Source: Candidatus Jordarchaeales archaeon (GTDB taxonomy: Archaea > Asgardarchaeota > Jordiarchaeia > Jordiarchaeales > Freyrarchaeaceae). From it: a stretch of DNA of 17,537 bases. Made by a program: the position numbers and the translations under genes. This document shows positions 1-15,074 of the stretch, one piece after another. The stretch covers positions 1 through 17,537 of the forward strand of contig JAWCFL010000033.1 of assembly GCA_038858525.1 (NCBI GenBank), written 5' to 3'. The stretch's first letter is position 1. Every line of letters begins with the position of its first letter. The notes under the pieces were generated by a model that saw only the letters and a program-made list of their open reading frames with translations, made no database searches and was not told where the DNA came from.

Positions 1-204
1 CCATAACCTCCTCCTTCACTACCTCCCTCATTTTCTCTCAACATTCTCCCTCCTTCGCATTTCCCCAACCAGGATCAATCATGATAATGAAGGGTCGTCG
101 CTTAAACCTTCCCGCCGAATAGGTGTGGAACAAAAACACACCAAACTAATGTAGCAGATACTACAACCGTAGCCACCACAACCACAACTAAAAACAGAAC
201 CACT

Positions 205-885
205 TTACTCATAATACTTACTTATTCTTTTAAACCCCGCCTTGGCGTATCTTCCCTCCCTCGTATCCTGGTCCGCTTTGTATGGTATCTTCCACGTTAC
301 ACCGAGCTTCCTGAGCTCCTCGCGGATCCTCATAACGTCATCCCTGTCGGTCCAGTCGTAAGTATAGACGCATATTACCCTGCTTCGGTCAGTGGCGCTT
401 GGTCTCGGCTTTGCCGTTGAAACCTTCGCAACATCGCCCAGCCTCCCCTCCTCCACGGCGCGCCGAACCCTCTCCCATAACTCGTCAACCTTCTCGGGAG
501 GAACAAATATAAGCCACTTACCGCTTCTCTTTGTCGCCTCAGGATACTTCCCCTTCTTCCTGCACGCGTAAAGCCAGTAGACCTCTGTAACCTCTGAGGG
601 CTTCGCGTCGCTCAAGGACTTCACGTATGCTTCCCCGCGATAATTATAAACCACGTAGTCATCCTCGTCACTCATCACCACCTTGTAGTCCCCCTCAGCG
701 ATTCGAAGCACCTCGACCACGCCGTCAAACTCAGGCGCCCTCCGCGCCCCCTCTGGAACCCGCCATCCCCCTCCACCCCCCCTTCCTTCTTCCTCTTCTT
801 CTTCCTCTTCTTCTTCCTCTTCTTCTTCCTCGCCCCTCGCTCTCAACTTCCACTTGCCCTTCCGCTTCATAGTTTCACCATTCAC
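205..885 (-). CDS. DUF1917 family (MTH1000/Bles03-like, eIF4E-like fold) protein with low-complexity N-terminal extension
   Basis: The C-terminal ~150 aa carry recognisable DUF1917 motifs: PSEVT..YW.YA, SGKWLIFV...VDELW, GRLGDVAKVST, VICVYTYD..D..DV..IRE.LRKLG, YKADQDT. Start uncertain: GTG 885 / ATG 870 (includes K/R-rich + E15 + G-rich tract) or ATG 675 (GGTGGTG just upstream; 156 aa core). Confidence 0.8.
   Translation of the reverse strand: MNGETMKRKGKWKLRARGEEEEEEEEEEEEEEEGRGGGGGWRVPEGARRAPEFDGVVEVLRIAEGDYKVVMSDEDDYVVYNYRGEAYVKSLSDAKPSEVTEVYWLYACRKKGKYPEATKRSGKWLIFVPPEKVDELWERVRRAVEEGRLGDVAKVSTAKPRPSATDRSRVICVYTYDWTDRDDVMRIREELRKLGVTWKIPYKADQDTREGRYAKAGFKRISKYYE
787..831. repeat. Perfect 12-bp tandem repeat (TTCTTCCTCTTC x3.75) encoding 15 consecutive Glu on the minus strand
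   Basis: Read directly: units at 787-798, 799-810, 811-822 and a partial unit at 823-831. Confidence 0.9.
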
Positions 886-1025: not shown

Positions 1026-1515
1026 GTTTCAAGCCCTTATAGGTATTCTTGCAACGAACAGTGAGAAAGATGAAAGGTGTGTCGTTAAGCGGTTTCAAGC
1101 CCTTATAGGTATTCTTGCAACTCACTGAGGTGACAGGGGTTTCTAAAGAAAACTGGAGTTTCAAGCCCTTATAGGTATTCTTGCAACCTCCCATCATGGG
1201 AGGAAGTGATACGAATATATGAAGTTTCAAGCCCTTATAGGTATTCTTGCAACAAAGCTAGGCTCATCGCTCCAAAAAAACACTTACCTGTTTCAAGCCC
1301 TTATAGGTATTCTTGCAACATGAAGGATACCGCCGCCTTCTTCCTTTCGTTTCGCGTTTCAAGCCCTTATAGGTATTCTTGCAACCGGCGGGCGAGAAGC
1401 GAAGACGCATCAAACCCATATGTTTCAAGCCCCTATAGGTATTCTTGCAACTCCCCAAAAACCCCTCCCCCCGACGCCCAAGAAGGTTTCAAACCATTAT
1501 AGGTATTCTTGCAAC
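1026..1515 (-). CRISPR. CRISPR array A: 8 repeats of 30 bp, 7 spacers (36,36,36,36,36,36,34 bp)
   Basis: Repeat GTTTCAAGCCCTTATAGGTATTCTTGCAAC starts at 1026, 1092, 1158, 1224, 1290, 1356, 1422 (T12C) and 1486 (G8A, C11A). The reverse complement GTTGCAAGAATACCTATAAGGGCTTGAAAC ends in the canonical ...TTGAAAC 3' handle, hence the minus-strand call (inferred). Confidence 0.98.
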
Positions 1516-1542
1516 ACAAGCCAACTATTCCAAGTAGCCTCC

Positions 1543-1802
1543 CTTTCAATCCCCATGTTTGGGGACTATTTTTGCTTGTCCTTTTTGGGGGTTGTTGACG
1601 TGGGGAGGGGTGTGTTGTCTTTCAATCCCCATGTTTGGGGACTATTTTTGCTTGGTAACTCAACGACGTCAGCAAGTCTCATAAGATCGTACTTTCAATC
1701 CCCATGTTTGGGGACTATTTTTGTTAGCGTTTAACCGCGCAGCTGATGCCCATGCTGGGCGGCATCCTTTCAATCCCCATGCTTGGGGACTTTTTTTGTT
1801 AG
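1543..1802 (-). CRISPR. CRISPR array B: 4 repeats of 36 bp, 3 spacers (40,37,39 bp)
   Basis: Core CTTTCAATCCCCATGTTTGGGGACTATTTTTG + CTTG/CTTG/TTAG/TTAG starts at 1543, 1619, 1692 and 1767 (last has T16C, A26T). Internal stem TCCCCA-TGTT-TGGGGA. The reverse complement ends ...GGGG-ATTGAAAG, with the canonical 8-nt handle at the base of the hairpin. Confidence 0.93.
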
Positions 1803-2190
1803 GGTTTGTGTTTTTGTTTGTTTTTGTTTGTTTTTAAGTTTTTTTGTTTGTGTTTTGTGTGTTTTGCGGAGCGTTGTGTTTTTGGTGTTGGGTTTATATG
1901 GGTGTTCCGTTTTTGTTTGGGATGTTTTTTGTTTTTATTTTGTTTTTTGATGAGTTTTGTGGTTTTTCTTGGTGTTTTCAGTGTTGGGTAGATTGTTTTT
2001 TTGTTTTTACGTTAATTTTTATGTTGTTTTTTCATTTTTTCATTTTTTCTTTATTTTTTTGTTATTTTTGTTTGTTTTTTGCCTGTTTCTTCTTTTTTCT
2101 TTGTTTTTTCGTTTTCTTGTTTTTTTGGTTTCGCCGTTTCTTGCTTCGAGGGAGGGTGATGTTTCGTCTGGATATTTATGTTTTTCTGTT
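1803..2190. other. T/G low-complexity non-coding tract; probable leader/promoter region of the arrays (minus strand)
   Basis: About 390 bp of almost only T and G between the last B repeat and the promoter of the cas1 operon, on the side predicted to be leader from repeat polarity. ORFs across it are F/V/L/C compositional artefacts. Confidence 0.5.
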
Positions 2191-2205
2191 TTTGAAGTAT
2201 ATTTC

Positions 2206-2220
2206 CGAAAAGTATATATA
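2206..2220 (+). promoter_or_regulatory. BRE-TATA promoter of the DUF2797-cas1-cas2-cas4 operon
   Basis: CGAAAAG-TATATATA at 2206-2220; GAGGGG RBS at 2250-2255 and ATG at 2264 follow. Direct repeat AAGTATAT at 2195-2202 and 2210-2217. Confidence 0.6.
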
Positions 2221-2263
2221 TTGCGGATTTGATCTTTCTCGTGGTGGTTGAGGGGTGTTTGTT

Positions 2264-3163
2264 ATGATTAGGCGTGGTAGTTTGGTTGGGTCTGTTGGTG
2301 TTTGTGGTTTTGGGGATGTTGGTGATTGTTTTGTTGTGGTTGGGGGTTTTAGTTGGCGTCCTTTTCTTGATTTCTGGTTGCCTTTTGTTGATACTGTTTC
2401 GCTTGTTGATGGTGGGGTTGAGTGGGGTGGTTTTCCCGTTTTTGGTGAGCATTTTTTTGTTTTTGGTGGGGGGAGGCGTTGTGTGGGTTGTTTGGGTTCT
2501 GGTGTTGTTGATGGTGTTGGTCTTTGTGGGGGTTGTGCTTCTTCGGTTTGGGGGGCTAGGTGGATGTGTAGTGTTAGGGGTGCTGGTGTTCCTTTTGGTT
2601 CTTCGTCTTGTAGTTTGGATGATCCTGCGTGTGGGTTGAGGGGTGCTGCTGCTAGGTGTGGGGGTGAGCATTATGTTTACCTTGCGGGGTTTGGTTGGGT
2701 TTTGAAGGTTGGTGTTGTTGCCGCTGATAGGCGGGATGGTTTTGTTGCTCGCTTGTTGGAGCAGGGGGCTGATTGGGCTGCGGTTTTTTCTGGTGGGTTT
2801 ACGCTTCCTGAGGCTCAGCTTGTTGAGGGGGAGGTTTCTAGGGTTTTTGGTGTTGCCGACAGGGTTGGGCTTGATGAGAAGGTGGAGGTTTTCCGTTCGG
2901 GTGTTGTGTGTGACTGGGGTGGGGTTGCGGGGGAGGTTGCGGATTATTTTGGGCTTAGGCTTGTTGGTCGTTACGATTTTTCTGGTGTTTATGGTGCTTG
3001 TCCGGGGTTTGAGGTTGCTGGTGTTGTGCGTGGGCCGAGGGTGTTTGGGGGGAGGCTTGTCTACGCTAGGGGTAACGTTGCCTTCTTTGATGTGGGTGAG
3101 TGTGGTGTTTATGTTTTGGATTTATCGTCGCTTCGGGGTTTGCCGTTGCTGTGTGAGGTCTAG
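2264..3163 (+). CDS. DUF2797-like protein: Cys-rich putative Zn-binding region plus a GIY-YIG-like motif block
   Basis: RRCVGC...LCGGC...C...C...C followed by HYVYLA-x6-KVG...RLLEQGA, matching the pattern I recall for DUF2797 (PHxVYLA...KVG...RWIDQGA). ATG 2264 preferred over GTG 2255 on RBS spacing. The stop at 3163 is 3 bp from the cas1 start. Confidence 0.7.
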   Translation: MIRRGSLVGSVGVCGFGDVGDCFVVVGGFSWRPFLDFWLPFVDTVSLVDGGVEWGGFPVFGEHFFVFGGGRRCVGCLGSGVVDGVGLCGGCASSVWGARWMCSVRGAGVPFGSSSCSLDDPACGLRGAAARCGGEHYVYLAGFGWVLKVGVVAADRRDGFVARLLEQGADWAAVFSGGFTLPEAQLVEGEVSRVFGVADRVGLDEKVEVFRSGVVCDWGGVAGEVADYFGLRLVGRYDFSGVYGACPGFEVAGVVRGPRVFGGRLVYARGNVAFFDVGECGVYVLDLSSLRGLPLLCEV

Positions 3164-3166
3164 GGG

Positions 3167-4201
3167 GTGCCGGGTTTGATTCTTGAGGTTTCGACTCATG
3201 GGTGTAGGGTTGGGCGTAGGGGTAGGCTGGTTAGGGTTACGCTTAATGGTGAGGTTTTGAGTGAGGTCCCCGTCTCTAAGCTTAGTGAGGTTATTGTTTC
3301 GGGTAGAGTTTCGTTTTCGAGCGAGGCTGTTCAGCTTTTGGCTGAGAATGGTGTTCCTGTCCTTTTCATGTGTGGTTGGAGGCCTGTTGCTTTGCTTCAC
3401 GGGTTCTTTATGCATGGGACTGTTTTGACTAGGAGGGAGCAGATGGCTGCTTACGACGATGAAAGGGGTGTTCATTTGGCTAAGGGGTTTGTTAGGGGTG
3501 GGCTTGTGAATAAGGCTCAGCTTCTCCGCTACTTTGCGGCTAGTAGGGGTAGGAGTGATGGGGAGCTTGCTGGTGCTCTTGAGGCTGCCGCCTCAGAGAT
3601 TTTCGGGGTTGCTTGTGAGGTTGAGAGGGTTGAGGGTGGGAGTGTTGACGATGTGAGGTTTGAGGTTATGGGTTTGGAGGCTGAGGGGACTAGGGTTTAC
3701 TATGAGGCTTTGCGCCTGCTGCTCCCGGAGGGGGTTGGGTTTGAGAGGCGTGAGAGGAGGCCTCCTAGGGACCCTGTGAATGCCGCTTTGAGTTATGGCT
3801 ACACTATGCTTAACGGGAGGTGCCTGTCGGCTATCGCTGCCTGTGGCCTTGAGCCTTACGCCGGCTTTCTTCACGCTGACAGGTCTGGTAAGCCATCATT
3901 GATGCTTGACCTTTCGGAGGAGTTTAGGCAGCCCGCCGTTGATAGGGCTGTGGTTTCACTTTTCTCTAAGGGAGCTCTTGGAAGGGAGGATTTCGGCTTT
4001 GAGGAGGGCAGGGTTGTCCTTGGGGGGAAAGGTAAGGAGGTGCTGCTGAGGGCTTTGAACGAGAGGTTTAGGGGGGAGGTGAGGGTTGACGGGGGCTCTG
4101 CTCCCCTGGAGAACGTTATTTTCAGGCAGGCTAGGATGATAGCGCGCTACCTTCTGGGTAAGGCTCCGAAGTATGAGCCCTACGTTTTCACTTGGCATTA
4201 G
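3167..4201 (+). CDS. cas1: CRISPR-associated integrase Cas1
   Basis: GLEAEG...YY, RRERRPPRDPVNAALSYGY, GFLHADRSGKPSLMLDLSEEFRQ (catalytic E/H/E); 344 aa. Confidence 0.97.
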   Translation: MPGLILEVSTHGCRVGRRGRLVRVTLNGEVLSEVPVSKLSEVIVSGRVSFSSEAVQLLAENGVPVLFMCGWRPVALLHGFFMHGTVLTRREQMAAYDDERGVHLAKGFVRGGLVNKAQLLRYFAASRGRSDGELAGALEAAASEIFGVACEVERVEGGSVDDVRFEVMGLEAEGTRVYYEALRLLLPEGVGFERRERRPPRDPVNAALSYGYTMLNGRCLSAIAACGLEPYAGFLHADRSGKPSLMLDLSEEFRQPAVDRAVVSLFSKGALGREDFGFEEGRVVLGGKGKEVLLRALNERFRGEVRVDGGSAPLENVIFRQARMIARYLLGKAPKYEPYVFTWH

Positions 4202-4209
4202 GGGGGTTT

Positions 4210-4491
4210 GTGGTGTTCGTGGTTGTCTATGATATTACGGATGACAGGTTGAGGGAGCGTGTGGCTTTGACCTTGATGGAGTACGGGTTCATCAGGATGC
4301 AGAAGAGCGTCTTCGTTGGTGATGTTAGTAGGAATGTGGCTGAGATGCTGGCTATAGAGCTCAGGAGGCTGGTTGAGGGGAACCCTTGCGATGTGAGGAT
4401 TATCCCTGTTTGCATGAGGTGCTATGAGGACGTTATCATCGTTGCGAGGCTGGTGGAGGCGGCTGAGGCCGAGGAGGTGGTGGTGACTTGA
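4210..4491 (+). CDS. cas2: CRISPR-associated protein Cas2
   Basis: VVYDITDDRLRERVA...YGF.RMQKSVF.G; about 93 aa. GTG 4210 after a G-rich RBS is preferred to the track's TTG 4192. Confidence 0.95.
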   Translation: MVFVVVYDITDDRLRERVALTLMEYGFIRMQKSVFVGDVSRNVAEMLAIELRRLVEGNPCDVRIIPVCMRCYEDVIIVARLVEAAEAEEVVVT

Positions 4492-5039
4492 GCGTGTTCT
4501 TCACCGCTGAGGACGTGAGGCAGTACGCTTACTGCAAAAGGAAGGTCTATTTCAGGTATGTTTTGAGGGCTAGGGTTAAGCCGACGGTTAAGATGGAGCG
4601 TGGGAGGGAGGAGCACTTGAAGCTTGAGTCCAGAAGGAAGAGGAGTGGCGGGGCGTACTTCAGCATGTATCTCTTCTCAGAGAGGCTTGGGCTTGCGGGC
4701 GTAGTGGACTATCTCAAGTATGAGGGGGGTGAGGTTATCCCTGTCGAGGTTAAGTTTGGGAGGTGGGAGAGGGTATATTCAGGGCACTACCTTCAGCTTG
4801 CGGCGCACGCCCTCCTGTTGGAGGAGCACTTCGGATTGGATGTGGTGCGGGGGGTTATAGAGTATCCTGACGGAGAAGTGGTGAGGGAAGTGAAGATAAC
4901 TGAGAAAGTTAAGCTTAAGGTTATTGAGGTGTTGTCGAGGATCAGGAGAATTGTCCTTGAGGAGGAGGTGCCGCCGCCATCGCTGAACGCTTCGAAGTGT
5001 GAGGGGTGTGAAGCGTATAGGGTCTGTAGGGGGTGCTAG
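4488..5039 (+). CDS. cas4: CRISPR-associated nuclease Cas4
   Basis: QYAYCKRK, GREEH, GVVD...PVEVK (PD-(D/E)xK), QLAAHALLLE and C-terminal CxxCxxxxxC Fe-S ligands; TTGA overlap with the cas2 stop. Confidence 0.95.
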   Translation: MSVFFTAEDVRQYAYCKRKVYFRYVLRARVKPTVKMERGREEHLKLESRRKRSGGAYFSMYLFSERLGLAGVVDYLKYEGGEVIPVEVKFGRWERVYSGHYLQLAAHALLLEEHFGLDVVRGVIEYPDGEVVREVKITEKVKLKVIEVLSRIRRIVLEEEVPPPSLNASKCEGCEAYRVCRGC

Positions 5040-5513: not shown

Positions 5514-6506
5514 ATGTATGTTGGTGTGGCGGTTAAGGTTCTCTTGAATATGCATGACCTTAACAACGAGAGGGCTGAGGAGATAAGGAGGGTTCCAGTT
5601 ATTTATCGTGGAAAGGATGGTGGATGGACGGTTTTTGAGGAGGCTGTTGCGGTTAGCGGGCTCATGATCAAGCGGTGGCACTTTGCGAACATGGTTGAAC
5701 TGGGAGGTGAAGTGTGTTTCTGTGATTTGTGCAAGAACTTAGAGGCTATTCGTATACCTAGTGAGAAAAGCGGGAAGGCTCGTAGCGAGTTTGAAATAAT
5801 TAAGGATTGTGCCGGAGAGGACGTTCACGGTTTCCTGAGGGCGAACCCTGTTTTAAGAAGGGAGTCAATGGTGAAGTTTTCATGGATGCTGCCATTGTTT
5901 AACGATGAAGTTGTCGAGGCTTTTGGTCTACCTACACCATTCAGAGTCGTGCAGCATACCAGAAATATCCGTGAAATAACTGAGAACGCTGCTAAAAGGA
6001 TGAATGTAGATTTGGATGAGTTAAGAAGGTGGCAGATGCCTTATCCGAGATCTTATGCCGCAGGAGTTTACGGTTTTGTTTCACTACTTGACCTTAAGCA
6101 TATAGGCTACTCTTTCACTGATAAGAAGGAGATTAACGAGAAAGAGAGGAGGGAGCGCCGGAAGGTGGCTCTTCAGGCGTATATTCCATTGGTGACTGGT
6201 TCTTGCGGTGCGTCCTTGGCGAGGGCGTTGCCTGTGGCGGACGTTTTGGAGGTGGTAACCGTGCTGAGCGATAAGGTGATACCTGCCCCAATACATCCAA
6301 TTTACTCGGAGTACGTTGAGGAGAATGCTAGGCTTTATCATAGTGTGTCGAAGGCTATGAGGAGCAATGTGACGATGTATGTGTGGTCTAAGGAAAAAAG
6401 GTATAGTGAGGGGAAAAGTGACTCATTTGAGTTGAAAATGGTGGAGAAGGCCGCCGATGGGTTTAGCGAGATCATTGGGCTTCTAGAGAGGGTAGGAGAG
6501 GTATAA
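5514..6506 (+). CDS. cas7: Type I-A Cascade backbone Cas7 (Csa2/DevR family)
   Basis: LNMHDLNNE, IRRVPV, AVSGLMIKRWHF, CxxC, EDVHGFL, RRESMVKFSW; RBS GAGGTGA upstream. Confidence 0.93.
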   Translation: MYVGVAVKVLLNMHDLNNERAEEIRRVPVIYRGKDGGWTVFEEAVAVSGLMIKRWHFANMVELGGEVCFCDLCKNLEAIRIPSEKSGKARSEFEIIKDCAGEDVHGFLRANPVLRRESMVKFSWMLPLFNDEVVEAFGLPTPFRVVQHTRNIREITENAAKRMNVDLDELRRWQMPYPRSYAAGVYGFVSLLDLKHIGYSFTDKKEINEKERRERRKVALQAYIPLVTGSCGASLARALPVADVLEVVTVLSDKVIPAPIHPIYSEYVEENARLYHSVSKAMRSNVTMYVWSKEKRYSEGKSDSFELKMVEKAADGFSEIIGLLERVGEV

Positions 6507-6507
6507 G

Positions 6508-7416
6508 ATGGAAGTATTCAGTGTTAGGGTTTTCCTCCCTCTTTTTCACGTTAGATACGAGGATGCTTGGGGGATTAGGTTGTCTCCGAGGTTGCCTCCT
6601 CCACGCACGATTCTTGGAGCGTTGGCTAAGGGTGTGGGGGTAGTACTGGGAGTGGAGGGGGGTGAGGTGCCAATTGGAGAGAAGCGGGCGCGTGAACTTC
6701 TCATGGATGCGGTGGAGTCTTGCTCTTACGGGTTTGTGAGGCCCTTATCCCCGCTGGTTAAGACGTCGCAGATTCTGCGTGTTGTGCCGGCGATCGAGCA
6801 AAAAAGGGTGACGTCTGACATTTTTAAGCTTAAAGGTGGAGGACTCGTTAATCAAGCCGCTAAGTTTCATGACGCCTTTAAGCATGACGTAGTGGTTTCC
6901 GGCGAGATGGAGTTTGTTTATGCTTTAAGCCTTGAGGAACTTAACGATGACATCGCTGGTAGCTTTGGCGGGGTTGGTCGGGAGGAGGTTCTTTCGGCTT
7001 TAAGGATGATTGACAGGGTTGGCTCGACAGAGTCACTGTGTGGGGTGTTGTCTGTTAAGCACGTAGGTTTGAAGGAGGTTGGTCCGAGGGCTACCGTCAA
7101 CACGTATGTTCCGGTAGAGGACCCTGCTAAGTGGGTGGAGCCGGTGCATGCTGCAACTCGGGGGTACCTTATTGAGCCACTATACCCTAACTTGCGCGTT
7201 GTAGGCATGAAAAGAGTTGAAGACGTGAAGTCTATGAAGATTAATTTTTTGCTTCCAATATACTGTAGCGAGGTGCGCAGGGGTAGGGAGGTGTTTGAGC
7301 CGACAGAGGTTTTAGTGGATTGCGTTAATGGTTATAGTGTGTATTCGTTGCATGGGACTGGTGATGGCGAGACTAGGATAGTTCTTCCTAGGGGGGAGCT
7401 TGATGGACTGGTATGA
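6508..7416 (+). CDS. cas5: Type I-A Cas5 (Cas5a)
   Basis: N-terminal RAMP motif LPPPRTILGALA, glycine loop DRVGSTES; 1 bp after cas7. Confidence 0.88.
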   Translation: MEVFSVRVFLPLFHVRYEDAWGIRLSPRLPPPRTILGALAKGVGVVLGVEGGEVPIGEKRARELLMDAVESCSYGFVRPLSPLVKTSQILRVVPAIEQKRVTSDIFKLKGGGLVNQAAKFHDAFKHDVVVSGEMEFVYALSLEELNDDIAGSFGGVGREEVLSALRMIDRVGSTESLCGVLSVKHVGLKEVGPRATVNTYVPVEDPAKWVEPVHAATRGYLIEPLYPNLRVVGMKRVEDVKSMKINFLLPIYCSEVRRGREVFEPTEVLVDCVNGYSVYSLHGTGDGETRIVLPRGELDGLV

Positions 7417-9343
7417 TGTTCTAAAGGAGGTTGCGAGGCATCAGGGGCGTAGGTTTGAGGAGAGGCCTCTGCAAAGGGAATTAGTTAATATTCTTCAGAG
7501 GCGCTTCGAGGAGGACGAGTTAACTGTTCCTCTTCTTATACGGCTCCCATGCGGCTACGGTAAGACTCAGGTGGGGGAGGCGCCCTTCTTGGGTGAAGCC
7601 TTTACAGGTGAGTGGATCACTAGAGGTATGGTTTACACGTTGCCGACCCGCTCGCTCACAGAGCAACAGGCGGAAAGAATCCGTGCGGACGTTGAGGCCC
7701 TGTGTAGGCTTAAGTCTCTCCCGAAGTTGTCCGTAAGCGAGCTTCACGGAGAGACTGGAACTTATTTTTTCTACGACGACGTGATCGTGTCAACCTTTGA
7801 TACGTTCATTTATGCGTATGCACGAAAGGTTCGCACGGGACATCACTTGGAGTTTCCCGCGGGAACAATATCCACGTCCTATGTTGTTTTCGATGAGGCG
7901 CACATGATTCAAGACGATTACCTGTATTCTCACTTAGTAATGAATAAAGTTCTCCGCGTGCTGTCGAAGGCCGGTGTCCCCACGATAGTAATGACAGCCA
8001 CTATGCCGGATCAGATCAAGAACGTTGTGTTTGATGGTGTGAGTTACGAGGAGTATCCTCCTATTAGCCATGTTTGCTCCTCACGGCTTGGGTCATATAG
8101 GGGGGAAGTAAGGGAGGTTCATCTGCACAGGGAAGATATCAAAGATTACATATGCAGAACCCTTTCCCCTGATGCTGCTGCTAATAAGCGTATTCTCGTC
8201 GTCTGTAACACCGTGAGTAAGGCTCAAGGTGTTTACCACGAGTTGGCCGGCAGGTTTTCAGGCGGCAGTGTTAGCGGGAGAGTCATCCTGCTACATTCTC
8301 GCTATGCAAAGATTGACAGGCAACGTTGGTCTAGCACCGCCATTAAGTTAATGAAAGGCATATGTGAAAGTTGTGAAGGGAAAATGGGGTTTCCAGTTTA
8401 TCTGTCGGAGGAAGAAGGAAGGGTTTACTGCGACCGCTGCGCTACTCCAAGCGCGGAACGGGTTGATTTCGTAATTCTTGTGGCTACTCAAGTCGTCGAG
8501 GCTGGACTCGACATATCTGCAGATTGGCTATTAACGGACATGGCCCCCCTAGATGCTCTCGTTCAGAGGGCTGGGAGATGCTCGCGTTTTCCAGGTGAAA
8601 GTAATGGTAGAATTGACGTTTTCTATTATGACAAAGTGCACTTGCCCTACCAGCAGAAGCTTGTTGAAAAGGCATACGAGATACTAGAAAATGAGGACGA
8701 CAAGGGTCGAATTCGCTCTTTGACTGATTTCACGTATTCATCAGCTATGATCAACAAGAACTACGATGTTTTTAGAAGGGAAGTTTTGGGCGAACACCGC
8801 CATTTAAGGTTATATTTAGGTTACCTTGAAGGGAACGGTTTTTCAACGTTTAGCGTTGACTGGGAGCTTCTAAGGCAAATCTCGGCGCGCCCGAACGCTT
8901 TTGTCACCCTGGTTGCTTTTTCAGAGGACGAAGATATTCCGGTATGCTTTCTGAAAGAAGAAGAGGCGGATTTACGTGTCCAAGGTAGGTATAGGAGTTA
9001 CCGCTGTGTTGCGCATAAATCCGTAAAGTATCACGAGCTGCTATCTCAAATGAGAGACGAAACCATCTGTATTAATAGGGACTTTGTGTTGTCTCACTCC
9101 TTCTCGCTGGAGCGTAATTATGCGATAAGTGACAATAAACCCAAACCATTCCTTCAACATGATCTCGACGGAAAAACCGTAATGGTGGAGTTGAAACCCG
9201 TAATAGTGGATGTGGAGGGGGGGCAGCGTAAACGCGAGTGCTACTACCTTGTCAGGGAAGCCTTTTCCGGGAGAGTCGACGAGAGCAACTACCTTGTTAA
9301 CACCAAGTTTTATGATGAGAAAAAGGGTCTCGAGGCGGGTTGA
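7403..9343 (+). CDS. cas3: Cas3' SF2 helicase (split Cas3)
   Basis: LPCGYGKT (Walker A), DEAH, MTAT, LLHSRY, VATQVVEAGLDIS, LVQRAGRCSR; no HD domain. Overlaps the cas5 stop; ATG 7403 or TTG 7400. Confidence 0.96.
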   Translation: MDWYDVLKEVARHQGRRFEERPLQRELVNILQRRFEEDELTVPLLIRLPCGYGKTQVGEAPFLGEAFTGEWITRGMVYTLPTRSLTEQQAERIRADVEALCRLKSLPKLSVSELHGETGTYFFYDDVIVSTFDTFIYAYARKVRTGHHLEFPAGTISTSYVVFDEAHMIQDDYLYSHLVMNKVLRVLSKAGVPTIVMTATMPDQIKNVVFDGVSYEEYPPISHVCSSRLGSYRGEVREVHLHREDIKDYICRTLSPDAAANKRILVVCNTVSKAQGVYHELAGRFSGGSVSGRVILLHSRYAKIDRQRWSSTAIKLMKGICESCEGKMGFPVYLSEEEGRVYCDRCATPSAERVDFVILVATQVVEAGLDISADWLLTDMAPLDALVQRAGRCSRFPGESNGRIDVFYYDKVHLPYQQKLVEKAYEILENEDDKGRIRSLTDFTYSSAMINKNYDVFRREVLGEHRHLRLYLGYLEGNGFSTFSVDWELLRQISARPNAFVTLVAFSEDEDIPVCFLKEEEADLRVQGRYRSYRCVAHKSVKYHELLSQMRDETICINRDFVLSHSFSLERNYAISDNKPKPFLQHDLDGKTVMVELKPVIVDVEGGQRKRECYYLVREAFSGRVDESNYLVNTKFYDEKKGLEAG

Positions 9344-9347
9344 ACAA

Positions 9348-10169
9348 ATGACAAGATGGAGATGCGAGATGGAAAATTGCCCGTTAAGGGGGGTTAGTAA
9401 AGTTTGCGGCGACGGAAAGGATGGACCAGTAGTAGTGTCCTATCATCCCAGCAATGGAAACAAAGAATGCTACGTTAGGCATTCGGTTCTATGCTGGGAA
9501 GAGTGGAAACGTGTGTTTGACAGATATATACGCTCCATTCACCGGGTTTTCAGGAAAACATTATTTATAAATGTGGACTTGAAAGTTATAGAAAATATTT
9601 GTGGAGTTGCGGTTCTCCATCATGACGTTGGAAAGTTGTGCGCAGATTACCAGTCTGCCAGATTTTATAGGCACGAGATGATAAGCTCGTTCCTAATTCA
9701 TGATTACGTTGTTGGGATGCTGAAAAATAGCTCCCTAGACGAGGAAAAGGCGGAGCTCCTTTCTTCAATAGTCTCGGCGGCGGTATACCTTCACCATGAA
9801 GGGCTCCAGATAAGTCATGAGTACTATGAGATGAGGGCGCCTACATATGGCTATCTGCTAAACCTGTTGGCGGGGAGAGAGTTCCGCATGGTCGAGTCTT
9901 GGATGCTGATATCTTCGGAGCTTGAAAAGTACGCCTTCGGCAGGACGCTTGGTTACTTCGCGAATGTAAGCTCGGTCAGCGGTTATGAGGTAACTAACGT
10001 GTTGGGCTCCGTCATAACGCTTGTGGATGGAGCCCCGGACCCGCTCCCGCTCCGCCTCGCCGTGGCTTCCATCCTTCACCCGATAACGATAACAGATAAC
10101 CTTGCATCGCAGAAGAGGGGAGGAAAACCAAGCTTGTTAAGCTCGTTTTTGGGGGTTACGGAGAGATGA
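9348..10169 (+). CDS. cas3'': Cas3'' HD nuclease (split Cas3)
   Basis: RHS...LHHDVGK...RHEMIS...LHHEGL HD-domain motifs. Start likely ATG 9348 or 9369 rather than the track's 9210, which overlaps cas3' by 134 bp. Confidence 0.9.
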   Translation: MTRWRCEMENCPLRGVSKVCGDGKDGPVVVSYHPSNGNKECYVRHSVLCWEEWKRVFDRYIRSIHRVFRKTLFINVDLKVIENICGVAVLHHDVGKLCADYQSARFYRHEMISSFLIHDYVVGMLKNSSLDEEKAELLSSIVSAAVYLHHEGLQISHEYYEMRAPTYGYLLNLLAGREFRMVESWMLISSELEKYAFGRTLGYFANVSSVSGYEVTNVLGSVITLVDGAPDPLPLRLAVASILHPITITDNLASQKRGGKPSLLSSFLGVTER

Positions 10170-11344
10170 GTAACGTTGTGAGTATTCCATCAACGAGAGA
10201 CCGAGTTCTTGATACGCTGCTCGTGTACGCGATCATGGACATTGGGTTAGAAGTGGACCCAGACATAAGGTTCAGGGTGACACTGGGACAAGAAAACTTC
10301 ATTACCGTGAATTATAGTAATTCGAACTTAGAAAGGGATATGCTTTCCAAACTGAAAGATAAGTCGAAAAGGTTCTCTATAGCTGACAGGATGAATTTCT
10401 TTTTGAACATGGGAAACACCTCTTGGAAAGTTGACAAGTGGGTGTGCACTTACTGCACCGGGAAAAATGATTGTAACCGTAATGGGGATTGCGGGAAAAC
10501 AAATATTTTGGCTTATGCCGTGCTTCACGGTTACATCAAATCTATGGGAAGTTTTTCTCTTCCGTGGAGTCCCAAATCCATAACGAAAGCAGGATCAAGG
10601 GGGAGGAGGTGTGCTACGCTGAGTGTTGGTGTTTCGCCGTACTGGTCGAAGGGGATAAGAAGGTGGGACATGGGGGAATGGAGGGAGGACTCGACCACCG
10701 TTGAGCATTCAGTTCTGCCATTTGCACTTTACGGATTAGGCAATTACACCATAAATGTGGTGACTGGGAACATGTTGATTCGGTTGATGTTTTCCCCACC
10801 TGTCGGTAGGGAGCTTTCTCATTTAGAAGCCATAAAGCTTCTAACGCTTGTGAGGCGAGTGGTCAACTCCATTTACATCGAAATGCAGAGATTTTTCCGA
10901 TTAGAGTTTCCTTCAATGGTCCTTCCGCTTTCCATGCTGTGCTTTCTAGATGTTCCAGCTATTTACATGTTGCATCAATTTTCTCCATCGATCCTCCTAA
11001 TTAGTTATGACTTATATAGGAATTCTCCGAAGAATCCACGCGGCTATGAAGAGTTGAGTTTGGCAGACGCATTGGAGTTTTACAGGCAGATAGGCGAATC
11101 ATTCTGGGACTTTAAAAAGATGATAATTGACCTGGTCAGCTTGGCGGAGAGGGAGGAATATAGGTCTCGGGTTTTTGATATACTTATAAAGTTGGCTTTA
11201 GGAATTAAGAACAAGGAGCCATCTTACTTTAACGATGCGCTTCTTAACATTCAATCGTTAAGGAAAGAAGTTAATGTTAAGTTTTTCGTTATAGGAAGAG
11301 AGGAGATGCTAGCTGCTCATAGGGCCCTAAGGACCTCTCATTGA
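10166..11344 (+). CDS. cas8a2: Type I-A large subunit Cas8a2 (Csa4-like)
   Basis: 392 aa, ATGA-coupled to cas3''; N-terminal P..D..LDTLLVY and SPYWSKG resemble Csa4-type motifs. The call rests mainly on operon position and size. Confidence 0.72.
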   Translation: MSNVVSIPSTRDRVLDTLLVYAIMDIGLEVDPDIRFRVTLGQENFITVNYSNSNLERDMLSKLKDKSKRFSIADRMNFFLNMGNTSWKVDKWVCTYCTGKNDCNRNGDCGKTNILAYAVLHGYIKSMGSFSLPWSPKSITKAGSRGRRCATLSVGVSPYWSKGIRRWDMGEWREDSTTVEHSVLPFALYGLGNYTINVVTGNMLIRLMFSPPVGRELSHLEAIKLLTLVRRVVNSIYIEMQRFFRLEFPSMVLPLSMLCFLDVPAIYMLHQFSPSILLISYDLYRNSPKNPRGYEELSLADALEFYRQIGESFWDFKKMIIDLVSLAEREEYRSRVFDILIKLALGIKNKEPSYFNDALLNIQSLRKEVNVKFFVIGREEMLAAHRALRTSH

Positions 11345-11453
11345 ACTTTCTACTTGGAGTTTTCGTTCAACACTGAACGTTCACATTAGGTAGTTGAATA
11401 GCTAGGAAAATTGTTTAATTGATGGTTTTTGCTTTTTACTTGAGGGATGAAGC

Positions 11454-12386
11454 GTGGGGATTATAAGTTCATTTACTCTAAATTTGGCGGTTGATGGCCC
11501 CATTACGTTTCAGGGGTTTTCAGGTTTTTCTGCTTTTAACTTATTTTACGAGTTAGTTCGCTCTATTGATCCGGGATTAGTTGAGGGGCTTCGTTCCTTT
11601 AGGGGGCCTGCACCGTGGGCTGCAACTCCTTTCATATCCGGGGAAAGCTCAAGAGTTATTTATCGGAAGCTTAATGTTCCATCAACTGTTAGCGTAACAT
11701 TCACTATGATGGATGAAGCGGTTTTGGATGCTTTTAGGAAAGCTATTCTATCTTCAAGACTTAAGCTGGAATTAGCTGGCGTTAAATTTAAGCTCCTCAG
11801 CATTACATTTAGTGTTTTAAGGTTTTCTGAGATAGCCTCTAGCGTGGACCCTCTTCCAACGAAGTTTGCCGTAGGTTTCATAACGCCGACAGCGTTTAGG
11901 CGCTCGGTCCACGACTGCTGCCCAACTTGCCCTCACTATGAAGCGTACTTGAGGAACCAGGAAAAGAAATTGACTGATAAACCATGCGAACACGTGATGC
12001 CTCATGGAAATACGCTAGTTCCTTTACCGCTTCCCTCACTAATGTTTCGGAACCTTGCAAGGATCTGGTCGTCTTTCTCGGACACGATGAAGGATGTTTG
12101 GAGCGCAGTTAAGTGGGCTGAAGAAGCTATTATCGTCACTGGTTTCCCTAGAGGAATAAGAACACGTAGGCTCTGCGAGGATGCCGCAACAAATAGGTGG
12201 ATAACAGGCTTCACGGGAAAAGTAAATTTTGCTGTTAAAGAAAATGCATACGACGAGAGGCATGCGAAAACGGTGGCAGCACTCTTAAGGATGGCGGAAC
12301 GTACTAATACAGGAGTGAGAAGAACTGCGGGATTAGGCATGATAAAATACTTTGAGCCTCTTGCCTCAGCAGAACATATTAAGTGA
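11454..12386 (+). CDS. cas6: Cas6 crRNA-processing endoribonuclease with a Cys/His-rich insertion
   Basis: F.TPTAFR, GF.GKV.F and the C-terminal Gly-rich loop TGVRRTAGLGMI; RBS GAGGGA 6 nt upstream of GTG. Confidence 0.92.
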   Translation: MGIISSFTLNLAVDGPITFQGFSGFSAFNLFYELVRSIDPGLVEGLRSFRGPAPWAATPFISGESSRVIYRKLNVPSTVSVTFTMMDEAVLDAFRKAILSSRLKLELAGVKFKLLSITFSVLRFSEIASSVDPLPTKFAVGFITPTAFRRSVHDCCPTCPHYEAYLRNQEKKLTDKPCEHVMPHGNTLVPLPLPSLMFRNLARIWSSFSDTMKDVWSAVKWAEEAIIVTGFPRGIRTRRLCEDAATNRWITGFTGKVNFAVKENAYDERHAKTVAALLRMAERTNTGVRRTAGLGMIKYFEPLASAEHIK

Positions 12387-13047: not shown

Positions 13048-13586
13048 TTTAATAAATTTCCCATGATACTATTGTTGGGATGATAGATCATGTGAGAGGT
13101 GACGGGAAGCTGGTTAAAGGGTCGCTTGTTAAATGGGCAGAGATGCTTAAGAGGAAGTAGGGAAAGTTGATGAGTAAAACGATCTATAAGCATGGTTTCG
13201 CTCATTCTTATCAATATTCTGCGAGGATTTGGTGTCGATTTATTAGTTCTCCGATGATTTCTGTTTTTTGGATTTGTTGAAGATAAATTCGGACGCTATA
13301 AAGGGAAAAGTAGAGTTAAAGTGTTCTTAATTACCCTTTTTTAGTTTAGTTGTAGTGGAATGATAAAGGTTTCAAGTCGGAGATGAAAAAGAAAAAGGCG
13401 GCGTGATTTTTGTGGTTGAAATGCTTTTATTGATGAACTTTTATACAGTTAAGATGGTGAAATGTCTATAGTGGTGTTTGATGTTTTATTTCGGAGGGAC
13501 GGCTGCCTTTATGTGGAGTTGTGGTTGTTCTGTGTGGTTTGGGTTTTTGTTGCTGTTGCGAATGTTCTGTTTTGTGGGAGGTGTTT

Positions 13587-15074
13587 GTGTTGGATGTTTG
13601 GGTTGCTTCTGTTAGTGTTTCTTCTCCTGCGGTGTTTAATGGTTTGTGGTTTGTTGCTGAGCGGTATGGTTTTGTTCCTGATCGTGTTTACCTGCTTTGG
13701 AATGAGAGTGTTGTTGGTCAGCTTGAGGCGGTTAGGAGGGCTATAGGGTTTTTGGGGGAGACTTATGGTAGGAGGGTTGAGGTTGTTGCTGATGAGAGTG
13801 TTAGGGTGTATGAGGAGGATATTGATGGCTTCAGGAGGAAGGTTGGCGAGCTTTTGAAGTCTCTTGGTGGTGTGGGGAGGGTTGTGGTTGATATTACTCC
13901 TGGGCGGAAGTTCATGTCTTCTTTGATGCTTGCCGCTGGGATGGAGCATGCTGACCACGTGGTTTACCTTTTTCTTAGGGATTTGGGCTACGCTGACAGT
14001 TACCTGTTTCACATACCGTTTTCGCTTCAGAAGCTGGTTGATTTGAGGGCGCTGTTTAAGGGGGGCGCTCCTCTTTCGGGTGAGCGGGTGAAGGGTGAGC
14101 GGGTGACGGTGAAGGTTTGTAGGAGGGATCTTATGGTTTTTTTGAACTCACTTTATCTTGACGGGCGGCTTGTTCATGATGTTAGGTTAGGGGGGGTCAA
14201 GTTGGGGAGGTTTACCCTTAAGCTTGAGGGGAATGAGGTGTCCTTCAACGTTGAGTGTAATGATTTTTGCGACGAGACTCATGGGGATTTTTCGTTGGTG
14301 AGGGAGGTTATCTTAGCGTCGGGCATGGCTCGCTTCTCAAACGAGGAGGAAGCGTTTGGAGAGGTGCTAAACGAGATTAAGCGCAGCAGTAGGACTGTTT
14401 ACGTTGGCTTCGACACCAACTCCCTTGTTTTTAGGGTGCCATCGAGGTTTCTGGAATACGTGAGAAGGGCGTATGCTGGAATGAGGGAGAGGGAGCCAAG
14501 CATTAACTTTGTTATCTCTGGAGAGGTGATTAACGAGGTTTCACGTAACGTGAACCAGAAGTTGCCCGTCGACCCTAAACTTGGAGACTACTCGAACCAG
14601 CTGACACCCAGGGCTAGGCTTTTCATGGTGGCGCAGGGTGAGAGACGATTGCTGGATGATCGCAACTCGGAGGTTGTTGAGGCAGGAGGCGACGCTAGGG
14701 GAGATGAAAAGATAGCCTTGGAGTACAAGGAGTTCGCCTCCAAGAAGGGAAATGTGGTGGTGTTCACTACGGACAGTGCGGCCTACATGGCCATGGATAG
14801 CTTCAGAAGGCAGGGATTGATACCCGTCAAGCTTAATCTCCCAAGTATGCAGGGCCCATTCAGGGGGAGGTGGGAGGACGCGAGAGACTTGCTATATTAC
14901 CTGTCGGTTGTTCTTGGAGAGATCAATGTTTCTCCTTATAGGTTTAGGGGTGTGTGGAGGGGTAAGAGCCCGGATGACTGGAGGCGTGAGCTGGTGGAGC
15001 TTTCCAACTTCGAGTATTCCCGTATCCTGGAGTTGTCTAGCAAGTTGCTGGCTGAGAAGGGAAGCCGTGGCTGA
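13587..15074 (+). CDS. CARF-PIN fusion protein (putative cyclic-oligoadenylate-responsive ribonuclease)
   Basis: N-terminal CARF: WVASVSVSSPAVFN...PDRVYLL and DITPGRKFMS (13890-13919). C-terminal PIN: VGFDTNSL (D at 14412), NEV, GDEKI, TTDS acidic tetrad. RBS GGAGGTG at 13577-13583 points to a start at GTG 13587 or TTG 13590 (~495 aa). Confidence 0.85.
   Translation: MLDVWVASVSVSSPAVFNGLWFVAERYGFVPDRVYLLWNESVVGQLEAVRRAIGFLGETYGRRVEVVADESVRVYEEDIDGFRRKVGELLKSLGGVGRVVVDITPGRKFMSSLMLAAGMEHADHVVYLFLRDLGYADSYLFHIPFSLQKLVDLRALFKGGAPLSGERVKGERVTVKVCRRDLMVFLNSLYLDGRLVHDVRLGGVKLGRFTLKLEGNEVSFNVECNDFCDETHGDFSLVREVILASGMARFSNEEEAFGEVLNEIKRSSRTVYVGFDTNSLVFRVPSRFLEYVRRAYAGMREREPSINFVISGEVINEVSRNVNQKLPVDPKLGDYSNQLTPRARLFMVAQGERRLLDDRNSEVVEAGGDARGDEKIALEYKEFASKKGNVVVFTTDSAAYMAMDSFRRQGLIPVKLNLPSMQGPFRGRWEDARDLLYYLSVVLGEINVSPYRFRGVWRGKSPDDWRRELVELSNFEYSRILELSSKLLAEKGSRG

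Follow-up and report, generated by a model that had tools for sequence, protein, structure and literature searches.

A probable chimeric CRISPR locus with two repeat families in a Jordarchaeales archaeon

The stretch of DNA described here, termed the window, is the entire 17.5-kb contig C33 (JAWCFL010000033.1; 17,537 nucleotides) of G000 (GCA_038858525.1), a metagenome-assembled genome (MAG) of a Candidatus Jordarchaeales archaeon with a size of 2.09 Mb, 63 contigs and a completeness of 92.7%. At positions 1026 to 1802, next to a type I-A cas operon, the window carries CRISPR arrays that belong to two different repeat families, A and B. Arrays are expected to match their own leader, Cas6 and Cas1-Cas2. 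The locus is probably a single chimeric one, in which a native, active B array lies ahead of a frozen foreign A array. The sequences compared with it include G002, a sister species of G000, G004, which represents a sister genus, and three further assemblies that contain the locus. Parts of the window are also present in hot-spring metagenomes, and no RNA run is listed among those that contain it.

Organization of the locus

The full locus is displayed by L040 (NCBI GCA_038846665.1), which corresponds to the reverse complement of C33 joined to contig C34 with a 2-bp overlap at 100% identity. In the order of array transcription it consists of the leader, four B repeats, the 27-bp junction, eight A repeats, a 1.32-kb insert, four A repeats of which the last is degenerate, a trailer of ~540 bp, and an AAA ATPase gene on the opposite strand. 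The features of the array region are listed below in the same order, in window coordinates unless another sequence is named.

1803 to 2254, minus strand: leader of the locus, 452 bp, A/C-rich on the transcribed strand and pointing away from the cas operon
1885 to 1910, minus strand: conserved leader block with a TATA-like box, ATATAAA (1899 to 1893), ~100 nt before the first repeat
1543 to 1802, minus strand: family-B array with four hairpin repeats of 36 nt and three spacers
1516 to 1542, no strand assigned: 27-bp junction that separates the last repeat of B from the first of A
1026 to 1515, minus strand: first part of the family-A array, which has eight repeats of 30 nt, seven spacers (34-36 bp) and no leader
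205 to 885, minus strand: DUF1917/Bles03-like gene of 226 aa (Pfam PF08939, E 1e-24), between the two A parts and in the direction of array transcription
1 to 68, minus strand: start of an open reading frame (ORF) of 130 aa and unknown family, which continues on C34 (L040:4818-5210) and runs with its 3' end into the next A repeat
C34:301-531: family-A array, part 2, three perfect repeats and a degenerate terminal repeat (C34:501-531) at the far end of the locus

The two A arrays could be taken for separate arrays with flanks that have no similarity, yet the join in L040 identifies them as two parts of one split array.

Both families display the near-identical repeats, regular period and unique spacers of CRISPR arrays, and every A and B spacer is unique within the genome. 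The A repeats (reference copy window:1026-1055:-) start at 1026, 1092, 1158, 1224, 1290, 1356, 1422 and 1486 at a period of 66, or 64 for the last; one mismatch sets the copy at 1422 apart and two the copy at 1486, and the other six are identical. The B repeats (reference copy window:1543-1578:-) are situated at 1543-1578, 1619-1654, 1692-1727 and 1767-1802 with a period of 73-76. B spacers are 35-48 bp long with a median of 39 bp, and those of the window measure 40, 37 and 39 bp. A control with reversed patterns of the A and B repeats gave zero matches genome-wide. The spacers of the window have no match in the phage collection and no self-target in the genome.

As RNA, the A repeat is weakly structured (-3.7 kcal/mol, z -0.6), in contrast to the B repeat, which adopts a stable hairpin (-11.9 kcal/mol, z -4.3; none of 200 shuffles as good). 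The only feature common to the two is the type of the 3' tag, CTTGAAAC in A and ATTGAAAG in B, with 3' ends of the expected type. The tags differ at 2 of 8 positions, and the mature CRISPR RNAs (crRNAs) are predicted to carry the 5' tags CUUGAAAC (A) and AUUGAAAG (B).

B arrays are abundant in the relatives, with 77 copies of the repeat in G002 and 211 in G004. These arrays have a degenerate repeat at the end matching the low-coordinate side of the window and a flank homologous to 1803-1910 at the other end, and on account of these positions B is read on the minus strand from 1803-2254. The leader is homologous to those of the B arrays next to the orthologue of the first cas gene (G002:C4 and G004:C16) and to one in G002:C2. 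In G002:C4 and G004:C16, the orthologue of ORF 2255-3163 is followed by an A/C-rich leader of ~480 bp and a B array in the opposite direction. The block at 1885-1910 is the most conserved part of the alignment of four leaders from three species and is a putative array promoter. G002 has an all-B array that stops 113 bp short of its AAA ATPase orthologue; from there on, the sequence remains syntenic with C34 through a HerA-like gene, Cas6 and HdrABC. The type I-A loci of G002 and G004 thus resemble that of the window in the first cas gene (84-88% identical), the homologous leader with its TATA block, the hairpin repeat family and the downstream neighbours. They differ in that their arrays are long and, where read (contig breaks interrupt them), made of B repeats only, with no A repeat or DUF1917 gene found. 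By orthology and synteny, B and its leader are shown to be the ancestral partner of the type I-A operon and native to the lineage.

Nothing comparable precedes A. A leader with a promoter block lies before B, whereas the A array has only 27 bp upstream, and the A leader seen in type I-B loci of other archaea is not present there. The junction contains no TATA-like element, has no second copy in the genome, and has no similarity to the A leaders of two such loci, L041 and L052 (described below). A and B are nonetheless co-oriented, because the direction of A in L041 and L052 corresponds to the minus strand of the window. A sequence-only reading of the window had described 30-bp weakly structured repeats and 36-bp hairpin repeats that share only the type of 3' tag, point the same way and are separated by 27 bp, too short for a leader or promoter. 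The folds and repeat coordinates, the orientations in L041/L052 and G002/G004, and the content of the junction are in agreement with this description.

In one sequencing run, X1, the depth of a 36-nt B-repeat contig is 5000, compared with 37 for a neighbouring single-copy contig, which suggests that the metagenome holds many more B repeats than were assembled in G000.

Strain variation and the origin of family A

L055 (GCA_038866325.1) is 99.8% identical to L040 over 5.6 kb, and L061 (GCA_038884015.1, the 148-kb contig JAVZKZ010000006.1) is about 98% identical to L040. The junction is identical in L040, L055 and L061. The A array of L055 has spacers identical to those of the window, and its B array has at least 21 extra leader-proximal units, in which 21 repeats are identical to 1767-1802 and one has a single further change; the three oldest spacers are common to the window. 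This comparison identifies the leader-proximal repeat 1767-1802 as the repeat variant that is currently copied. The B array of L061 comprises at least 16 repeats, every one of the older type (1543-1578), and none of the 15 spacers read in it is shared with the window. Its A array retains spacers 1, 2, 3 and 5, then an additional internal spacer, then 6 and 7; the distal part is down to one spacer, and the same two variant A repeats are retained.

Judged from these sequences, L055 and L061 are strains distinct from that of the window, with different B arrays. The junction is not a misassembly, because other strains with different B arrays share it, and the comparison of assemblies shows the junction to be real. 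The same alignments show B actively gaining spacers in a polarised manner, as seen in L055 and L061, and show A to be static, with changes between strains only by internal loss and with no polarised gain. The earlier suggestion that the B units are younger than the A units within the locus is therefore borne out by L055 and L061. At the time of the strain split, the ancestral locus probably had about one B repeat between the leader and the 27 bp, followed by A, since L061 has the junction and A in common with the window but none of its B spacers, and B probably regrew independently thereafter. Turnover of B by recombination with other B arrays, instead of regrowth from one repeat, is a less simple explanation.

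The Logan contigs of four hot-spring DNA runs break at repeats and leave 1411-1614 uncovered, which makes them uninformative on the junction. A scan of JGI metagenome contigs found none in which a B repeat end has an A repeat start after it within 15-45 nt. One contig of run X2 contains ~22 nt of A repeat, 21 other letters and a B repeat, with a flank too short for interpretation.

A scan of ~185,000 species genomes found an A repeat of 100% identity in L041, from a MAG titled 'Nitrososphaerota archaeon', and in L042, from one titled 'Candidatus Methanomethylicaceae archaeon'. Two further sources outside G000, L052 (ENA) and L053 (JGI), came from the metagenome scan. L041 has the order cas6, four genes at the positions of cas8-cas7-cas5-cas3, cas4, cas1, cas2, an AT-rich leader of ~115 bp and an A array; cas6, cas1 and cas2 are identified, and the middle genes are named by position and length only. 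The L052 contig presents cas1, cas2, a similar leader and then an array with a 100% identical A repeat. Likeness to the type I-B loci L041, L042 and L052 lies in this identical repeat and in their spacers of 36-37 bp (as measured in the L041 and L052 A arrays), compared with 34-37 bp for the A spacers of G000. The arrays of L041 and L052 sit behind cas1-cas2 and the ~115-bp leader; the A array of the window does not. No spacer is common to the window A array and these donor-type arrays. On sequence, orientation and spacer length, A is assigned to the repeat family of the L041 and L052 type I-B loci.

Within the phylum, G000 was the only one of 400 genomes with A at up to three mismatches, and A was absent at the same threshold from the 40 relatives searched. 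A is shown by these searches to be a repeat family otherwise found only outside the sampled genomes of the phylum, and it looks imported. In the 92.7%-complete assembly we found no type I-B module and no cognate cas1-cas2, leader or cas6 for A. That a cognate Cas6 or Cas1 was transferred together with A was considered and set aside, as the G000 proteins have no close similarity to the donor-type ones: its Cas1 proteins are 25-27% identical to that of L041, and its Cas6 proteins gave no BLASTP match to donor-type Cas6.

G002 has no counterpart to the G000 sequence from the junction to the AAA ATPase gene, and no DUF1917 homologue was found in G001-G004; on these two grounds the segment that carries A is taken as a foreign piece of ~2.6 kb. 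DUF1917 homologues at 60-75% identity are widespread across bacteria and archaea. We also note that the DUF1917 gene ('putative phosphothreonine lyase') has a long poly-Glu tract. A Pfam search of the 130-aa ORF gave no significant family, and the 2.6-kb segment contains no integrase, transposase or terminal repeats. Integration of the segment as a giant spacer is disfavoured, since it would have left a second B repeat and neither the 540-bp trailer nor the 1.3-kb insert contains a decayed A or B repeat. Being leaderless, with spacers of donor length, changed by internal losses only and split by a 1.3-kb gene insert, A looks inert here.

The search for further A arrays, proposed together with the fusion, returned part 2 of the array at C34:301-531 and a solitary repeat elsewhere. 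The latter, at C45:10933-10960 (L057), is a lone 28-nt A-like repeat (A minus 2 nt) situated ~60 bp after cmr1 of a complete native Cmr operon, and may be all that is left of a third A array. In G004, no A-like repeat was found after cmr1. This Cmr operon was considered as an imported partner of A and rejected, as it has orthologues in G002 (68% identical) and G004 (52%).

Interpretation and alternatives

The sequence of events that best accounts for the locus begins with its native part, the type I-A operon, the 452-bp leader and the family-B repeat, which belong to the lineage. In the ancestor of the species, the leader-distal B array beyond about one repeat would have been replaced by the foreign segment of ~2.6 kb, comprising a leaderless A array, already split or later split by the 1.3-kb DUF1917 insert, and the trailer of ~540 bp. 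We read the 27 bp as a scar left where an illegitimate join took place. New spacers are integrated by Cas1-Cas2 where the leader meets the first repeat, and that repeat is duplicated in the process. Given this insertion site, a native leader and one native repeat placed ahead of a foreign array must grow as native units ahead of the foreign ones, and the locus displays just this pattern; new B units would stack before A, independently in each strain, and A could only lose units. We infer the single-repeat intermediate, the read-through and the recombination mechanism from the arrangement of the locus and its variation.

The leader promoter would transcribe through B and the 27 bp into A and give rise to a composite pre-crRNA. 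As the 27-bp gap has no leader or TATA-like element, an A transcript would have to originate from B-leader read-through or from cryptic promoters in the spacers; read-through from the B leader into A is plausible. One of the three Cas6 proteins of G000 might cut the A repeats, and the CUUGAAAC-tagged crRNAs might be loaded into I-A, III-B or III-D complexes. That all of this takes place, with A transcribed from the B leader, cut by a host Cas6 and its crRNAs with the non-cognate CUUGAAAC loaded into host I-A or type III effectors, is considered unlikely.

Several points weigh against the account of a chimeric locus. The absence of B spacers common to L061 and G000 also fits recombination with other B arrays. 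It is unusual to find variant repeats at the upstream end of an array, as is the case for the two A repeats beside the junction; perhaps they are old interior repeats. T runs occur on the transcribed strand, five T in the first A spacer (~1457-1461) and seven T in the fourth (1274-1280), and could end archaeal polymerase early and lower read-through. In L053 (JGI Ga0105163_1016775), which comes from another population of the species and is 98% identical to C34:3809-5517, the A array contains two different spacers and abuts another boundary (the equivalent of C34:3806; L053:1-170); the ~3.3 kb that G000 has between the array and the HerA-like operon, with the AAA ATPase gene among it, is missing there. 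It follows from L053 that the history of A in the species is more complex than one event. A past acquisition of A by the lineage, with the module since lost or unassembled in a genome that is 92.7% complete, is conceivable. The placement of the source in another phylum has its basis in the titles of MAG records.

A different view holds the locus to be a functional, selected design, in which one pre-crRNA is processed by different Cas6 paralogues and B serves I-A and A a type III complex. The sequence-only reading had proposed such a pre-crRNA feeding two pathways, and the second cas6 that it wanted looked for is matched by two more Cas6 genes (C34 and C7). The three Cas6 paralogues, the two Cmr modules and the III-D module are thus what a selected design would draw on; the solitary A-like repeat directly after the native Cmr operon in C45, the mere 2 of 8 tag positions that differ, and the retention of A in strains that replaced all B spacers point the same way. 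Selection is not needed to explain the retention of A: recombination between an A and a B repeat is not possible, so that A cannot be deleted en bloc. A only loses spacers and is split by the 1.3-kb insert, and the assembly encodes neither a Cas1 nor a Cas6 cognate to it; the C45 Cmr is native, with orthologues in G002 and G004, neither of which has A repeats, so it did not arrive with A. While the additional effector modules and Cas6 genes that the proposal needs do exist, A behaves as a static passenger in slow decay, and a selected design is judged distinctly unlikely. The other earlier proposal, in which A is the older resident and an invading B leader and repeat replaced the repeat family by leader capture, would fit with the younger age of the B units within the locus. 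It is contradicted by the leader and B being orthologous and syntenic with the I-A operon in the sister species and genus, by the G002 array that is all B up to the AAA gene, and by the absence of A from every other genome of the phylum searched, and is very improbable. The best reading is accordingly neither a purpose-built dual-pathway array nor leader capture by B.

The remaining alternatives concern how the segment arrived and whether the arrangement is genuine. The 2.6-kb segment could be a fragment of a plasmid or virus with orphan A arrays that integrated into the host array, a proposal about the vehicle only and compatible with the chimeric locus favoured here. The DUF1917 gene and the 130-aa ORF between the array pieces, genes absent from the sister genomes, speak for it, and small arrays on mobile elements are known from Sulfolobales plasmids and viruses (PMC4390879, PMC6858448). 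At least 11 spacers is large for a virus-borne mini-array, and integrase, transposase, terminal repeats and phage-collection matches are all missing from the segment; it may be only a fragment, and we regard a mobile-element vehicle as unlikely. Convergent arrays, with A on the plus strand from 886-1025 and B on the minus strand, would place a plus-strand terminal repeat where the variant A repeats are found, at the junction side, and a TATA-like run lies at ~913-922. This run suits the promoter of the DUF1917 gene; the repeat of L041 and L052 has cas1-cas2 and the leader before it when read in the sense of the window minus strand, and the true degenerate terminal repeat, C34:501-531, lies downstream in that orientation. 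Convergence is extremely improbable. The same holds for an assembly chimera of two organisms from one hot spring, which would be suggested by G000 being a MAG, by identical A repeats in other archaea, by other A contexts in the same runs and by the uncovered 1411-1614 in four runs. The junction recurs in three further assemblies, including strains with different B and a 148-kb contig, the sequence at the join is unique and has two variant A repeats beside it, and native synteny continues on both sides.

CRISPR loci are described as highly regular, and structural irregularities and insertions in the arrays as very rare (PMC4390879). The closest precedent for the frozen part is the leaderless locus F of Saccharolobus solfataricus, which takes up no new spacers and does not vary from strain to strain, although arrays nearby do (Garrett et al. 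2015, PMC4390879). Locus F and the A array of the window have in common that they are leaderless and static between strains beside changing arrays. Locus F stands alone with the host's own repeat family, in contrast to A, which is of a non-host family and lies head to tail 27 bp behind an active native array, whose promoter it could borrow. CRISPR3 of Pseudomonas aeruginosa is an isolated, cas-free array that was acquired horizontally and adds ready-made spacers (Malaluan and Dy 2026, PMC13142298). Its transfer took place within one species, with the host's own type I-F repeat, a matching leader and demonstrated activity (PMC13142298), whereas A has a non-cognate repeat family and spacer lengths and misses its leader. 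A literature search found no natural chimeric, hybrid or composite two-family array under one leader, and such a miss is no proof of absence.

The locus represents a natural, strain-resolved breach of the regularity of CRISPR arrays, with an active native array growing ahead of a frozen array of another family. The three-strain series would follow the reset of an array to about one repeat and its regrowth, together with the decay of a leaderless array. It also poses a cross-family test of whether host Cas6 and effectors use crRNAs with non-cognate repeats, and its interest would rise if A crRNAs are made and used. In that case ready-made spacers from another archaeal phylum would confer working immunity, so that immune memory would be inherited horizontally, through fusion of the array with a native leader and one native repeat, and distantly related archaea of one spring could pass immunity on by arrays alone. 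If A is not usable, the locus would amount to a neutral scar and would serve as a warning to software that infers the host of a spacer from its array context.

The cas operon and other CRISPR modules

The cas genes next to the leader are arranged as follows.

2255 to 5039, plus strand: adaptation genes, namely DUF2797-like (2255-3163), cas1 (3167-4201), cas2 (4192-4491) and cas4 (4488-5039) (NCBIfam TIGR00287, TIGR01573, TIGR00372)
5514 to 12386, plus strand: type I-A interference genes, namely cas7/csa2 (5514-6506), cas5a (6508-7416), cas3 helicase (7400-9343) and cas6 (11454-12386)

Assignment to type I-A follows from hits to TIGR02583, TIGR01874, TIGR00287, TIGR01573, TIGR00372, the Cas3 helicase domains and PF10040, with HD, Cas8a and Csa5 placed by position only. 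Two ORFs at 9210-11344, the expected site of cas3'' HD and cas8a, have no family hit and owe these labels to position only. The coding strand is strongly G+T-rich at 1800-3500 and at other gene starts (e.g. 13460-14000), with GC skew up to +0.57 and AT skew down to -0.72. ORF 2255-3163 is a real gene despite this skew, because it is 84-88% identical in the relatives G002, G003 and G004. Between the leader and this first cas gene, a near-palindromic block at 2195-2226 is conserved in G000, G002 and G004 and may be a regulator site or the cas promoter; a similar motif is found near the 3' end of C50.

The three Cas6 paralogues of G000 are encoded at window 11454-12386, C34 (7340-8197) and C7 (61503-62534). 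Its other effector modules are two type III-B Cmr modules (C45 and C50) and one type III-D module (C49). The C50 contig also carries two cas1 genes and cas4, and it ends, right after these genes and beside the Cmr module, in an A-rich leader-like sequence (C50:10992-11246, L037), which an unassembled array probably follows. At the start of C49, a third repeat family of 37 nt (C49:21-300, L039) has a 5' half related to B, a different 3' tag and a degenerate terminal repeat; the neighbours of this array are a split Argonaute-like gene and the type III-D operon. Isolated pairs of direct repeats, 50-95 bp apart, are observed inside genes at C34:1919-2031, at C34:8293-8385 and on other contigs, and one of them lies at the start of the flanking AAA ATPase gene.

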